From Actinomycetota bacterium (GTDB lineage Bacteria; Actinomycetota; Acidimicrobiia; Acidimicrobiales; JAFATL01): 64,000 nt of DNA. Numbering within the stretch: the first letter of the stretch is position 1; every line of letters begins with the position of its first letter. The position numbers were made by a program, and so were the translations under genes. Positions 18,487-24,545 of the stretch are shown in pieces. The stretch covers positions 15,114 through 79,113 of the forward strand of contig JBEEFP010000050.1 in the NCBI GenBank assembly GCA_041166085.1. Direction: 5' to 3'. Under the pieces are notes generated by a model that was given only the letters and a program-made list of their open reading frames with translations, had not been told where the DNA came from and ran no database searches.

Positions 18487-18900
18487 TTAAGCCAGTCCCG
18501 GGAAAAAGATGGAAATTTCCCGCTTTGCGGAATCGGGTCCGTCCGACCCGTGCACGAGGTTCTCGGTGAGCTCCACCGCGAGGTCGCCGCGGATCGTGCC
18601 GGGCGCCGCTTCCTTGGGGTTGGTGGTGCCCATGAGGTTCCTGACGACCTTCCAGGTGTCCCCCGGGCCCTCGACCACGAGGAGCATGGCGGGGCTGCGG
18701 GTGATGAAGGCCACGAGGTCGTCGTAGAACGGCTTGCCCTGGTGCTCCTCGTAGTGGCGGCCCGCGGTCGCTGCGTCGATGGTGCGCAGCTCGCCGGCCA
18801 CGAGGGTCAGGCCCTTGCGTTCGAGGCGGGCGATGATCTCGCCGGCCAGGCCGCGCTCGACGGCGTCGGGCTTGCAGATGACGAGGGTGCGGTCAGCCAT
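18487..18900 (-). CDS. ndk: Nucleoside diphosphate kinase
   Basis: The motifs RTLVICKPDAVERGLAGEII, GTTNP and NLVHGSD identify the protein. It is 137 aa. Confidence 0.93.
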   Translation of the reverse strand: MADRTLVICKPDAVERGLAGEIIARLERKGLTLVAGELRTIDAATAGRHYEEHQGKPFYDDLVAFITRSPAMLLVVEGPGDTWKVVRNLMGTTNPKEAAPGTIRGDLAVELTENLVHGSDGPDSAKREISIFFPGLA

Positions 18901-20191
18901 GGTCGGGCGAAGCTAGTACCGCGCGCGCCGCACCGACCAGGTAGAGGCTGCCCGTCACGAGGACGAGGTCGTCGACGTGGGCCGCGTCCACGGCGAGGCT
19001 CAGCGCCTCGGCGACTGACGTGGCCGGCACCGCCTCGGCGCCGAGCGACTTGGCTGCGTCCACGATGTCGGCCGCCGGCAGAGCCCGCGGCCACGGCGGC
19101 GGACAGGCGACCACGAGGCGGGCCTGTTCGGCGCCCAGGGCGCGCAGCAGCTCGACGGGGTCCTTGCCCGCGAAGCACCCGAAGACGATCACACGACCCG
19201 ACGCCGAGGAGAACTCCTCGTCGAGGGTGGCGGCGGCCGCGCGCGCGCCGGCGGCGTTGTGTGCGCCGTCGAGCACGACAAGGGGGCGGCGACCGACGAT
19301 CTCCATGCGGCCGGGCGACCGCACCGTCGCCAGCCCCTCGGCCACGACCTCGGGTGTCAGGGGTTCGCCGAAGAATGCCTCGGCCGCGGCGAGGGCGATG
19401 GCCGCGTTGTCCCCCTGGTGGGCGCCGTGCAGGGGCAGGTACACGGCGTCGTAGGTCGCGCCGGGCGTGCGCAGGTCGAGCAGGCGGCCGCCATGAGCCA
19501 CCGCGTTGGCGATGCACGCGAAGTCCTCGTTGCGCAGCCACGTGGTGGCCGCGCCCTCGCGCTCGAAGATGGGGACGAGGCCGGGATCCGTCTCGCCCAG
19601 CACCAGGGTGGCACCCGGTTTGACGACGCCGGCCTTCTCGAAGGCGATGTCTTCGCGCGTCGGCCCGATGAACTCGAGGTGGTCGAGGGCCACGTTGGTG
19701 ACGACCGCGACCGAGCCGTCGGCCACGTTGGTGGCATCGAAGCGGCCACCGAGACCCACCTCGACGACGGCCACGTCCACCGCGATGTCGGCGAACCAAC
19801 GCAGCGCCGCGGCGGTGATCAGCTCGAACCAGGTGGGCATGTGGTCGATGAGGGCCTCGAGCTCGGCCAGCGCGCCGACCACCTCGGCGAAGGCGCCGTC
19901 GGAGATGGGCTCGCCGTTCCAGCTCATGCGCTCGTTGACGCGCTCGAGGTGGGGGCTCGTGAAGGTGCCGACCGAGAGCCCCTTGGCCTCCAGCAGGGCG
20001 GTGAGGATGCGGGCGGCCGACGTCTTGCCGTTGGTGCCGGTGATGTGCAGCACCGGGTACTGCTGCTGCGGATCGCCCATCACCGTCATGAGGGCGCGCA
20101 CGCCCTCGAGCTTGAAGGCGGCCTCGGGCGCGGGCACCGCCTCGCGGTTGACGCGCTGGTCCAGCCACGCAATCGCCTCTTCGTAGGTCAC
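18893..20191 (-). CDS. folC: Bifunctional folylpolyglutamate synthase / dihydrofolate synthase
   Basis: HITGTNGKTSAARIL is a Mur-ligase P-loop, and SPHLERVNERM is also present. The start is re-set to the GTG at 20191 (VTYEEAIAWLD), 10 nt after the upstream stop. Confidence 0.85.
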   Translation of the reverse strand: MTYEEAIAWLDQRVNREAVPAPEAAFKLEGVRALMTVMGDPQQQYPVLHITGTNGKTSAARILTALLEAKGLSVGTFTSPHLERVNERMSWNGEPISDGAFAEVVGALAELEALIDHMPTWFELITAAALRWFADIAVDVAVVEVGLGGRFDATNVADGSVAVVTNVALDHLEFIGPTREDIAFEKAGVVKPGATLVLGETDPGLVPIFEREGAATTWLRNEDFACIANAVAHGGRLLDLRTPGATYDAVYLPLHGAHQGDNAAIALAAAEAFFGEPLTPEVVAEGLATVRSPGRMEIVGRRPLVVLDGAHNAAGARAAAATLDEEFSSASGRVIVFGCFAGKDPVELLRALGAEQARLVVACPPPWPRALPAADIVDAAKSLGAEAVPATSVAEALSLAVDAAHVDDLVLVTGSLYLVGAARAVLASPDHG

Positions 20192-20201
20192 GCTGCCCTC
20201 G

Positions 20202-21953
20202 CTAGTCGCCGAGGAGCGGGGCGGCCAGCGCCTTGACACGGTCGACGGCGTCGGGACTGATGCCCTGCTCGAGGAGGCCGGCCAGCAGCGGGATGACGTC
20301 GCCGGGGGTGCCCGCCGTGAAGGCGGCGTCGTAGGCGATCAGCAGGTCCTCGATGCCGGCCTCGCCGATGGGCGGGTCGTCGATGGCGGCGACGAGGGCG
20401 CCGGCCGCGTCCAGGTCGAGTCCGCCGGCCAGCAGGGCGGCCCGCACCACGCGGGGCCCGACCTCGGACACCAGACGGGCCAGGTCCACGGGCAGACGGG
20501 GGTCGGGGTCTTCCTCGGTGGCCACCACGTGGTGCACGGCGACGTTGCAGAACGGCACGACCCCCGCCAGCCACACGCCGAGGGCGGCCATGGGCAGGAC
20601 CCACTTGACCACGCCGCTCGGTCCGACCACGAGGGTCGTGACCGGCGCCAGCTCGGCCGGTCCCTTCTCGGTCGCGGGCCAGCCACCGGCCGCGAGCGGC
20701 CACACCGCGCCGACGAATCGGGCGTCGAGCACGTCGTCCTCGGCGACGAGCGTGCCCATGCACTTGCCGCACGACGTCGAGGTCTCGACGCTGACGGCGA
20801 GCTGGCCGCAGTCGAGGCACGCCGCCACCGGCACGGGCTGGCCCGCCCACACCTGGTGGCTCAGACACCAGTCGCCGCCCAGTCCGGCGCGGGCGATGAG
20901 CTCGTCGCGCGCCATGGGCGGGGCGAAGTCGATGCGGCTCTCGCGGACGGCGTCGGCCGCCGCCACCTCGAGATCGGCCATGGGCAGGAACCAGTGCCGT
21001 CCCCGCCTGGGCACGAGCACGGTCCCGCAGCGCCGGCACCGGTCCGACGGCTCGAGCCCGGGCCGCACCACGAGGACGTCCCCGTCGGCGGTGATGAGCT
21101 GGCGGGCCGCGGCCCGGGCCGCGAACCGGGCCAGGCCCTGCAGGGGTCCGTCGGAACGCACCACGCCGTCGGCGTCGAGCACGTCCACCGGTAGCAGCCC
21201 GTGACGGCGGGCCCGCTCGAGGCCGGCCGCGTCGTGCGACGGGATCACGAGCTCGGGCGCTTCGATGCCGGCCTCGGCGATCACCGGCACCACCGTGCGG
21301 GCGACGGGCACCTCGACCTGGCTGCCGGCGGCCGGGTGGTCCTCGGGCACGACGACCGCCACCACGCCCGGGAGCAGCTCGGGGGCGACGAGATCGACCT
21401 CCACGTCGAAGGTGACCTGGGGGCCGGTGGTCTCGGGCGGGCCCAGCTTGAGGGTGATGACCTCGGCGTCGAGTGCGGTGGGGATGGCGTCGGCCGGGTC
21501 GATGACCGTGCGGCAGCGGGGGCAGGTGGCCACGACCTGCTCCTGGCGGGTGAGCAGGCCCGCCTCGTAGAGACGGACGAAGGCGGTCCGGGCGGCGACG
21601 ACAGGCGCCTCGGTGTCGAGGGCGTCGGCTCCCAGGTCGGCGCTGATCCCCGCCGCGGCCAGGTCGCGGGTCACCCGCTCGCGGGCCTCGGCCTCCTGGG
21701 CCCGCACCCGGTCGACGAAGGCGTCGCGGCCGAGGTCGGAGCGGCTGATGCCCTGGCGGGCCAGGTCCCGCTCGACCAGCGCTTGACTCCCGAGGTCCCC
21801 GGCGAGTGTGGGGGCCTGCCACGTCCCCTCGGCTCCCTCGGACCGGGCCCGGCGCAGCAGGGCGTCCACCGACGCGAGGGTGGCGAGGTGGGCCAGGTGC
21901 AGCTCGCCGGTCAGGCGGACGGGGCTGGTGAGGATGCGGTACTGCTCGGGCAC
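20202..21953 (-). CDS. Short, degenerate valyl-tRNA-synthetase-like protein (class I aaRS homolog lacking KMSKS and the anticodon-binding domain)
   Basis: 583 aa in the syntenic valS position. ValRS-like blocks are present: TGELHLAHL (HIGH region), [39 protein letters not shown] and [20 protein letters not shown]. No KMSKS-like loop is present, and only about 75 aa follow that region. Confidence 0.6.
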
Positions 21954-21983: not shown

Positions 21984-22550
21984 CTAAGCGACTTTGACCA
22001 GGATGGGCTCGCGGTCCTGGATCCGCTCCTTGGCATGGTCCGCCAGCTCCTCGGCCCGCTTGCGAGCCTGATCGGCGGCCTTCTCGGCCCGCTTCCGAGC
22101 CTGCTTGCCGGCGTGCTCGGCCCGCTTGGCCGCCTCGATGCGTGCCTTCCCGGCCCGCTTGCCGGCCTCCTTGCGGGCGGCCTTGGCCTGCTTGCGAGTC
22201 TGCTTGGCCGCCTGCTCGAGATGCGGCTTGGCCGTGTCCGCCGCCTCCTTGGCCCGCTCGCGGGCGACCTCGAGGGCGTGCTCGACAGCGGGACGGGCGA
22301 TGCGGGCCGCCTCGGCGAAGCTGCCGGCCTTGAGCGCGGTGATGGCGCTCGCCTTGCGGGACTTGCGCTTGGAGCGACGATCGAGGAGCAGGCCGAGGAC
22401 GGCGCCGCTGGCCGCGAAGGCACCGGCGGTCTTGGCCGCGTCGGTGGCGAGGTCCTCGGACTGGTCGTTGGGCGACTGGCTGCTCCGGTACACGGCGACG
22501 CCGACACCGGCGATGCCACCCAGGAGCGCGAACTTAACGAGCTTGGCCAT
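21984..22550 (-). CDS. Hypothetical N-terminally anchored Ala/Lys/Arg-rich helical repeat protein
   Basis: The N-terminus [23 protein letters not shown] is a TM anchor. It is followed by repeats such as [54 protein letters not shown]. The DNA shows imperfect tandem repeats. Confidence 0.55.
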
Positions 22551-22618: not shown

Positions 22619-23893
<1,275 letters not shown>

Positions 23894-23909
23894 TGTCCCC
23901 CCAGCCTCC

Positions 23910-24545
23910 TTATGCGACGCCCGCGGCTTGCGGGACCTGTGCCAGTTCGCGAGTCGTGATGACCTCGTCGACGATGCCGTACTCACGAGCTTCTTCTGCG
24001 CTCATGATGAAGTCGCGATCGGTGTCGTGCTTGACCTTCTCGATGGTCTGACCCGTGTGGTGGGCCAGCATGGCGTCGAGGAGATCGCGCATGCGCAGGA
24101 TCTCCTTGGCCTGGATCTCGATGTCGGCGGCCTGGCCCGCAGCACCGCCGTAGGGCTGGTGGATGAGGACCCGTGCGTGGGGCAGGGCGAAGCGCTTGCC
24201 CTTGCTGCCGGCGGCCAGCAGCACCGCCGCGGCCGACGCGGCCTGCCCGTAGCAGAACGTGGAGATCTCGTTCTTCACGAACTGGATGGTGTCGTAGATC
24301 GCGAAGAGGGCGGTGATGTCGCCACCGGGTGAGTTGATGTAGAGGCTGATCTCGCGGTCGGGGTTCTCCGACTCGAGGAACAGGATCTGCGCGCACACCA
24401 GGTTGGCGATGGTGTCGTCGATGGGCGTGCCCAAGAAGATGATGTGGTCCTTGAGCAGCCGGGAGTACAGGTCGAAGGCCCGCTCGCCCCGGTTCGTCGA
24501 CTCGACGACCGTGGGAACGAGGTAGTTGTACGCGGGCTGGATCAC
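23910..24545 (-). CDS. clpP: ATP-dependent Clp protease proteolytic subunit ClpP
   Basis: The motifs [33 protein letters not shown] and [14 protein letters not shown] (Ser active site) are present. The GTG start forms a GTGA overlap with the tig stop. Confidence 0.93.

Follow-up and report, generated by a model that had tools for sequence, protein, structure and literature searches.

Valyl-tRNA synthetase (ValRS) is reported to be among the most evolutionarily stable synthetases, genomes normally having a single copy (PMC5388404). No ValRS-derived example is included in a recent review of synthetase duplicates and synthetase-like proteins (PMC9437257), and our literature searches for a described ValRS pseudo-paralogue or pseudo-synthetase found none. 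Dead paralogues of other synthetases are already a known kind, among them the Sulfolobaceae LeuRS-I, a second class Ia LeuRS that does not aminoacylate (Weitzel et al. 2020, summarised in PMC9437257). Here we describe a probable ValRS-derived case: the 583-aa mini-ValRS, encoded between clpX and folC in a 64-kb stretch of contig JBEEFP010000050.1 (the window) from a soil Acidimicrobiales bacterium. The original prediction, made from the DNA letters, had left two readings: a pseudo-enzyme or paralogue with the real valS lying elsewhere, or an extremely divergent synthetase. The first is now supported by the loss of functional residues in a gene under purifying selection and by an alternative-type (alt) ValRS in the metagenome-assembled genome (MAG) of a relative; mini-ValRS is most probably a catalytically dead, shortened descendant of the ancestral type-1 valS, with the working ValRS encoded elsewhere.

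Homology and active-site residues of mini-ValRS

The open reading frame begins with GTG and ends with TAG. The features of the gene are as follows (residue numbers refer to the 583-aa protein):
20202..21953, minus strand: mini-ValRS gene, 583 aa; type-1 ValRS catalytic core and CP1 domain, without working motifs
21888..21899, minus strand: HIGH relic HLAH, residues 19-22, aligned with HMGH of the Thermus thermophilus ValRS structure 1GAX
21513..21524, minus strand: zinc-knuckle CxxC (C144, C147), pairing with C306/C309 at 21027-21038; family-invariant
21054..21476, minus strand: relic of the CP1 (editing) domain, residues ~160-300, including LVAPEL
21375-21392, minus strand: LVAPEL, residues 188-193, aligned with ATVRPET
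20760..20819, minus strand: second zinc module (C379, C382, C395, C398); family-invariant
20484..20522, minus strand: site of the former KMSKS loop, residues 478-490, [13 protein letters not shown]; four residues are deleted here compared with T. thermophilus ValRS
20205..20501, minus strand: acidic helical C-terminal tail, residues ~485-583, isoelectric point (pI) 4.05; stands in for the anticodon-binding and coiled-coil domains

The protein matches Pfam tRNA-synt_1 (E = 2.4e-32) and the NCBIfam valS model NF004349 (222.8 bits, about a third of the curated cut-off of 704 bits), residues 3-481 corresponding to profile positions 30-513 of 860. The score against TIGR00422 was also below the cut-off (204.4 versus 612.1 bits). 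The type-2 model NF009687 gave merely 103.8 bits, indicating that mini-ValRS derives from the bacterial type-1 enzyme. A phmmer comparison with 1GAX (E = 1e-55) placed residues 7-507 on 38-555, with about 35-40 N-terminal ValRS residues missing and about 76 residues remaining after the last ValRS-aligned position. The domain search gave neither an Anticodon_1 nor a Val_tRNA-synt_C match, and neither the ValRS C-terminal domain nor any other ValRS-like sequence was present in any frame of the 64-kb window. The AlphaFold2 model, based on a 39-sequence family alignment, reached a mean predicted local distance difference test (pLDDT) score of 91.0 and a predicted template modelling (pTM) score of 0.88; the best Protein Data Bank (PDB) match found by Foldseek was again 1GAX (E = 1e-38, TMq 0.83). 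In the model and the alignment, the class Ia Rossmann fold, the inserted CP1 domain and the Cys4 zinc knuckles are all present.

The landmarks that the original prediction had picked out by eye (HLAH at 19-22, LVAPEL at 188-193, LSHQ at 364-367 and residues 478-490 in the KMSKS gap) are all confirmed by the 1GAX alignment, which also bears out the truncations it had described: some 40 residues at the N-terminus, and an end about 75 residues past the KMSKS site without anticodon-binding or coiled-coil domain. The mapping of catalytic residues by alignment with a ValRS hidden Markov model or structure, which it had also called for, found no intact equivalents of HIGH or KMSKS. It had further named a frameshift, with the missing domains encoded in the flanking DNA; none of these domains was found in any window frame. 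An artefact of this kind (frameshift, misassembly or sequencing error shortening a normal valS) would fit the frame breaks or fusions seen at some long-read MAG loci (L061, possibly L024). However, the same length, start and stop recur in dozens of independent assemblies from various projects and technologies, and folC directly follows mini-ValRS; we consider the explanation practically negligible.

We compared 61 canonical full-length ValRS with 117 members of the mini family, using the 173 columns at least 85% conserved in the canonical set. At HxGH, the mini family retains the first His in 37% of members, the Gly in 8% and the final His in 49%, and divergent members have PGPM, GFNE or GVNA where HIGH lies. 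None of the 117 members contains a KMSKS-like sequence. Other blocks of the synthetic site are replaced: PPPN by S-P-V-R; the Asp-His of GTDHAG by Leu-Ala; the Trp of DTWF by Arg (97% of the family); the Arg of ISRQ, aligned with LSHQ of mini-ValRS, mostly by His; the His of WWGH mostly by Gln; and the ribose-binding block GYD by GPS. The Asp of GTDHAG is the residue which we take to hold the amino group of valine in 1GAX; Fukai and colleagues reportedly described this contact in 2000. Pro41, Asn44, Asp81 and Trp456 of the T. thermophilus valine/adenylate pocket correspond to Ser, Arg, Leu and Arg. Many of the replacement residues are themselves conserved in the family (Arg412 97%, His320 96%, Ala457 96%, Gly52 94%), which fits a re-packed, selected scaffold and not random decay.

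The editing site has changed as well. V, A and L take the place of T, R and T in the TxRPET block, GTG has been deleted, and the pocket Lys and Thr became Leu and V/I. Taken together, T, R, T, D, K, T of the canonical editing site read V, A, L, V, L, V. The editing Asp universal in Ile-, Leu- and ValRS is kept in 38% of the mini family and is Gly in the 583-aa protein. These data bear on the possibility that mini-ValRS is a trans-editing or tRNA-binding factor, whose CP1 domain and zinc knuckles would bind the acceptor end of tRNA-Val and clear mischarged tRNA or sequester it. Conservation is strong in the CP1 fold, an E192/H240/D241 block, a GLxRFxAR-like helix and the two zinc knuckles, and a comparable class Ia paralogue, the Sulfolobus LeuRS-I, still binds tRNA (PMC9437257). 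Nevertheless, the changes from R, T, K, T to A, L, L, V have made the editing pocket hydrophobic, the universal Asp is mostly gone, both tRNA-binding C-terminal domains are missing, and the protein is strongly acidic (pI 4.6, net charge about -32; median pI 4.6 in the mini family versus 6.0 in canonical ValRS), all of which makes such a factor quite improbable.

By alignment, the motifs and domains for activation, transfer, editing and anticodon recognition are thus missing from the mini family. An extremely divergent working synthetase, the second reading of the original prediction, was rejected on sequence grounds: HIGH is not conserved, KMSKS is deleted, the amino-group Asp is Leu and the anticodon-binding domain is missing.

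Distribution, selection and the probable working ValRS

A search of 5.8 billion proteins with mini-ValRS gave 428 matches. Among the best 120 of the 428, tRNA-synt_1 was the sole domain, lengths were mostly 480-596 aa, identity ranged from 90% to 46%, and all named sources were Acidimicrobiales or Actinomycetota MAGs. The family as a whole spans 440-596 aa and 40-90% identity. HMMER over 50%-identity representatives gave about 45 family clusters, followed by a clear break before full-length ValRS appear at 32-33% identity; among the full-length proteins, the nearest representatives (P0162-P0177, P0198, others) come from unrelated organisms or are Streptomyces/Micromonospora paralogues. GTDB species genomes with a family member number about 33, all of them uncultured Acidimicrobiales-like MAGs. 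The 39-sequence alignment has about 50 invariant positions, among them all 8 zinc-module cysteines. Database records frequently label mini-family proteins 'valyl-tRNA synthetase', a name that can mislead annotation-based calls of ValRS presence.

Two further kinds of sequence were observed in these searches. P0065 (Joint Genome Institute, JGI, metagenome, 562 aa) is a single case of a DUF1003 membrane domain (residues 1-78) fused to a mini-ValRS without its first ~85 residues. P0198, P0250 and P0262 (Streptomyces, Micromonospora, Solwaraspora) come from cultured actinomycetes and are ValRS-like 'class I tRNA ligase family proteins' on separate long branches, about 790-850 aa long, with the N-terminal region missing and variant motifs in some; they are possibly paralogues connected with resistance or biosynthesis.

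Conservation of the short form in relatives, another check proposed with the original prediction, was analysed by the ratio of non-synonymous to synonymous substitution rates (dN/dS). Frames were intact, and the ratio was 0.20 between mini-ValRS and the closest locus (L002), compared with 0.24 for folC, 0.15 for ndk and 0.04 for clpX in the same pair; other close mini-ValRS pairs gave about 0.3. Mini-ValRS is maintained by purifying selection.

A profile of alt-type sequences retrieved hundreds of proteins of about 850 aa, named at source 'valine--tRNA ligase [Acidimicrobiia/Acidimicrobiales bacterium]', which score 1415-1453 bits on NCBIfam NF000540 'alt_ValS' (cut-off 900). In five NCBI MAGs, alt valS lies exactly in the clpX-folC slot. 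The type-2 ValRS of L078, tried as a representative of the Acidimicrobiia, was rejected when it proved to be from Streptosporangiaceae. Matching of whole-genome shotgun prefixes, which worked once, revealed both genes in one MAG: GCA_035651095.1 (SMAG_U10054) carries a mini-ValRS at its clpX-folC locus (L007, on DASRGI010000084.1; 56% identical to the window copy) and an 840-aa alt ValRS with HVGH at 54 and KMSKS at 580 (P0515, on DASRGI010000263.1). The tetranucleotide correlation between the two contigs was r = 0.989, versus 0.72-0.92 for other loci. An intact alt ValRS is therefore encoded elsewhere in at least one mini-bearing relative, and an alt ValRS outside the window would likewise be the working enzyme of the window's genome. 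On DASRGI010000263.1 (L165:4658-8523), alt valS is divergently paired with cysS, followed by an anti-sigma-like HATPase and a GAF-SpoIIE phosphatase.

The complete alt ValRS in this MAG also speaks against a split ValRS, in which mini-ValRS would be the N-terminal subunit and the KMSKS and anticodon-binding half would be encoded elsewhere. Aquifex has a split LeuRS, and the shortest members of the family (micro forms, see below) terminate just ahead of the KMSKS position, as such a subunit might. Even so, an active subunit would be expected to keep HIGH, the valine pocket and the Asp that binds the amino group, and each of these is lost or variable. No C-terminal half was found in the window, nor in the surroundings of 33 loci out to 10 kb. 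A split enzyme is accordingly very unlikely.

In the course of events that we propose, an archaeal-like alt ValRS (NF000540), encoded elsewhere, would have taken over Val-tRNA synthesis in this Acidimicrobiales lineage and thereby rendered the old type-1 valS redundant. The freed gene would have shed its N-terminal helix, KMSKS loop, and anticodon-binding and coiled-coil domains, and lost the chemistry of its two pockets, synthetic and editing. It may then have been reshaped in place into a non-catalytic protein retaining the zinc-stabilised Rossmann/CP1 scaffold. Since this scaffold is well folded and under purifying selection, the product appears to act as a protein, not as a ValRS-type enzyme.

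The clpX-folC slot and the upstream small protein

The gene order is tig-clpP-clpX-(small ORF)-mini-folC-ndk-mreB at every mini locus, the small open reading frame (ORF) encoding a 188-aa protein in the window. The neighbours of mini-ValRS in the window are:
22619..23986, minus strand: clpX, upstream anchor of the conserved valS locus (tig-clpP-clpX)
21984..22550, minus strand: 188-aa basic, membrane-anchored A/K/R/E-rich protein, between clpX and mini-ValRS
18893..20191, minus strand: folC, likely GTG start at 20191, 10 nt past the mini-ValRS stop; ndk, mreB and mreC are next

A scan of the operon for promoters and terminators found nothing, such a scan being uninformative at 70% GC. Two loci showed unusual frames. 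In a long-read MAG (L024:10001-13040), mini-ValRS and folC lie in one 1013-aa stop-to-stop frame; an indel error at the 4-nt junction of the two genes is the most likely cause, and a real mini-ValRS/folC fusion is a possible one. In a complete long-read chromosome (L061:9980-11412, OY970363.1), mini-ValRS, tig, clpP and clpX are split into several frames, probably by assembly indels.

With the window ClpX as bait, 80 metagenome loci were fetched and their clpX-folC interval was classified. The states found among relatives were: type-1 valS; type-1 and alt valS in tandem; alt-type valS; mini; micro; and nothing. An alt-type/type-2 ValRS occupies the slot in L093 and L094. In L095:6179-13009 and L098:7355-12065, an alt-type valS (HLGS or HVGH; KLSKS) comes in tandem after a full, motif-intact type-1 valS, possibly a snapshot of the stage preceding the loss of one copy. 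The slot is empty, with clpX abutting folC, in 14 loci (L086-L090, L092, L100, L102, L112, L115, L125, L130, L148, L152). In a ClpX+FolC+Ndk+MreB tree, one clade (local support 100) contains the mini, tandem and alt-at-locus lineages and one group without the gene; this group is nested among mini lineages, which indicates a secondary complete loss. The micro forms (L016, L018, L020, L023, L027, L028, L029; 444-476 aa) are a monophyletic subclade and stop just before the former KMSKS position, with folC and clpX directly adjoining. The C-terminal tail was also shortened independently in several sub-lineages, e.g. L014. One group of related lineages thus preserves the stages by which an essential gene is replaced by a xenologue (type-1 alone; both types in tandem; alt alone; the dead but selected relic; a shortened relic; no gene), and the locus offers a natural series on the retirement of an essential enzyme and the reuse of a class Ia scaffold.

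Several observations weigh against a retained, selected descendant whose work is done by an alt ValRS elsewhere. The repeated C-terminal truncation, together with complete loss in a group nested within the mini clade, marks a labile gene, so any function of mini-ValRS is dispensable in some lineages. Its rate of change is above that of core genes. The mini family forms a single clade (SH-aLRT 100) whose stem measures 1.2-2.1 substitutions per site, and the attachment point of the family inside the type-1 tree is not resolvable, the long branch being drawn to the outgroup or to other long branches. No RNA runs containing mini-ValRS were found, which leaves the gene without transcript support. 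The co-occurrence of mini and alt ValRS comes from one MAG, in which binning might have mixed contigs, and the 64-kb window contains neither an alt valS nor the cysS-type neighbourhood of alt valS.

Some of these observations would suit a slowly eroding, functionless remnant whose frame stays open incidentally, for instance through translational coupling to folC: every catalytic motif is gone, the gene shortens stepwise in related lineages (from about 575 to 500 to 450 aa) before disappearing, the stem branch is long and RNA evidence was not found. Such decay is nevertheless difficult to reconcile with more than 400 sequences whose frames are intact down to 40% identity, with dN/dS values of 0.2-0.3, near those of folC and ndk, with invariant zinc cysteines and other residues (about 50) and conserved replacements of active-site residues (such as Arg412 and His320), and with a confidently predicted fold; coupling to folC would put no constraint on amino acids. 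We therefore regard a decaying remnant as unlikely and retain the catalytically dead, selected descendant of type-1 valS as the better explanation.

The 188-aa protein consists of N-terminal hydrophobic helices followed by a long, basic, A/K/R/E-rich helical region, and has weak ElaB, apolipoprotein and DivIVA-like matches. In about 15 of 17 loci with a long-form mini-ValRS, a homologue (38-71% identity) separates that gene from clpX. Among the sampled loci the small protein is confined to neighbours of long-form mini-ValRS; it is absent at micro, empty, alt and most type-1 loci, and there clpX directly adjoins the next gene. The independent co-occurrence events are few and there are exceptions (L011, L017), so that the link between mini-ValRS and the 188-aa protein is a weak lead towards a partnership of the two.

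Possible role and comparison with known systems

As a catalytically dead protein, mini-ValRS might serve as a binding or regulatory scaffold, an assignment that we make tentatively and that would be loosely analogous to the dead paralogues HisZ and Sulfolobus LeuRS-I. A possible partner for its acidic C-terminal tail is the basic, membrane-anchored protein whose gene lies immediately upstream. A more specific and rather doubtful version is that, after the Acidimicrobiia had gained an archaeal-like alt ValRS, the redundant valS of one soil clade was turned in place into a zinc-containing, acidic and non-catalytic class Ia scaffold partnered with the upstream basic protein, which would have co-evolved with it, e.g. 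as a membrane-tethered sensor or adaptor for translation or the adjacent cell-envelope genes. If true, this would be the first ValRS-derived pseudo-synthetase having a dedicated partner.

Of the known systems, type-1 ValRS (T. thermophilus, PDB 1GAX/1IVS; NF004349/TIGR00422) is the best sequence match among all families and shares with mini-ValRS the Rossmann core, CP1, both Cys4 zinc modules and the clpX-folC position. In contrast to it, mini-ValRS is about 300 residues shorter, lacks the N-terminal helix, the anticodon-binding helical bundle and the coiled-coil, does not conserve HIGH, has KMSKS deleted, and has its valine, ATP and editing pockets replaced. The alt-type/type-2 ValRS (NF000540, NF009687), the other ValRS of Acidimicrobiia, occupies the same slot in many relatives; with all motifs intact and a full length of about 850 aa, it shares just about 24-26% identity with mini-ValRS and is presumed to be the functional replacement of type-1, not a relative of the mini form.

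The Sulfolobaceae LeuRS-I resembles mini-ValRS in being a retained class Ia paralogue, non-charging as mini-ValRS is predicted to be, in which the CP1 editing domain is disrupted and the C-terminal region is divergent and acidic. It exists beside a working enzyme, as the mini form does in GCA_035651095.1. However, LeuRS-I is full length, makes Leu-AMP and binds tRNA, whereas mini-ValRS lacks adenylation motifs and tRNA-binding domains; the two belong to different domains of life and have different parent synthetases. HisZ, the HisRS paralogue acting as regulatory subunit of ATP phosphoribosyltransferase, also has a truncated core without anticodon-binding domain, does not aminoacylate and is kept for a non-catalytic role, but it is a class II protein, has HisG as its partner and binds histidine, whereas the amino-acid pocket of mini-ValRS is not conserved.

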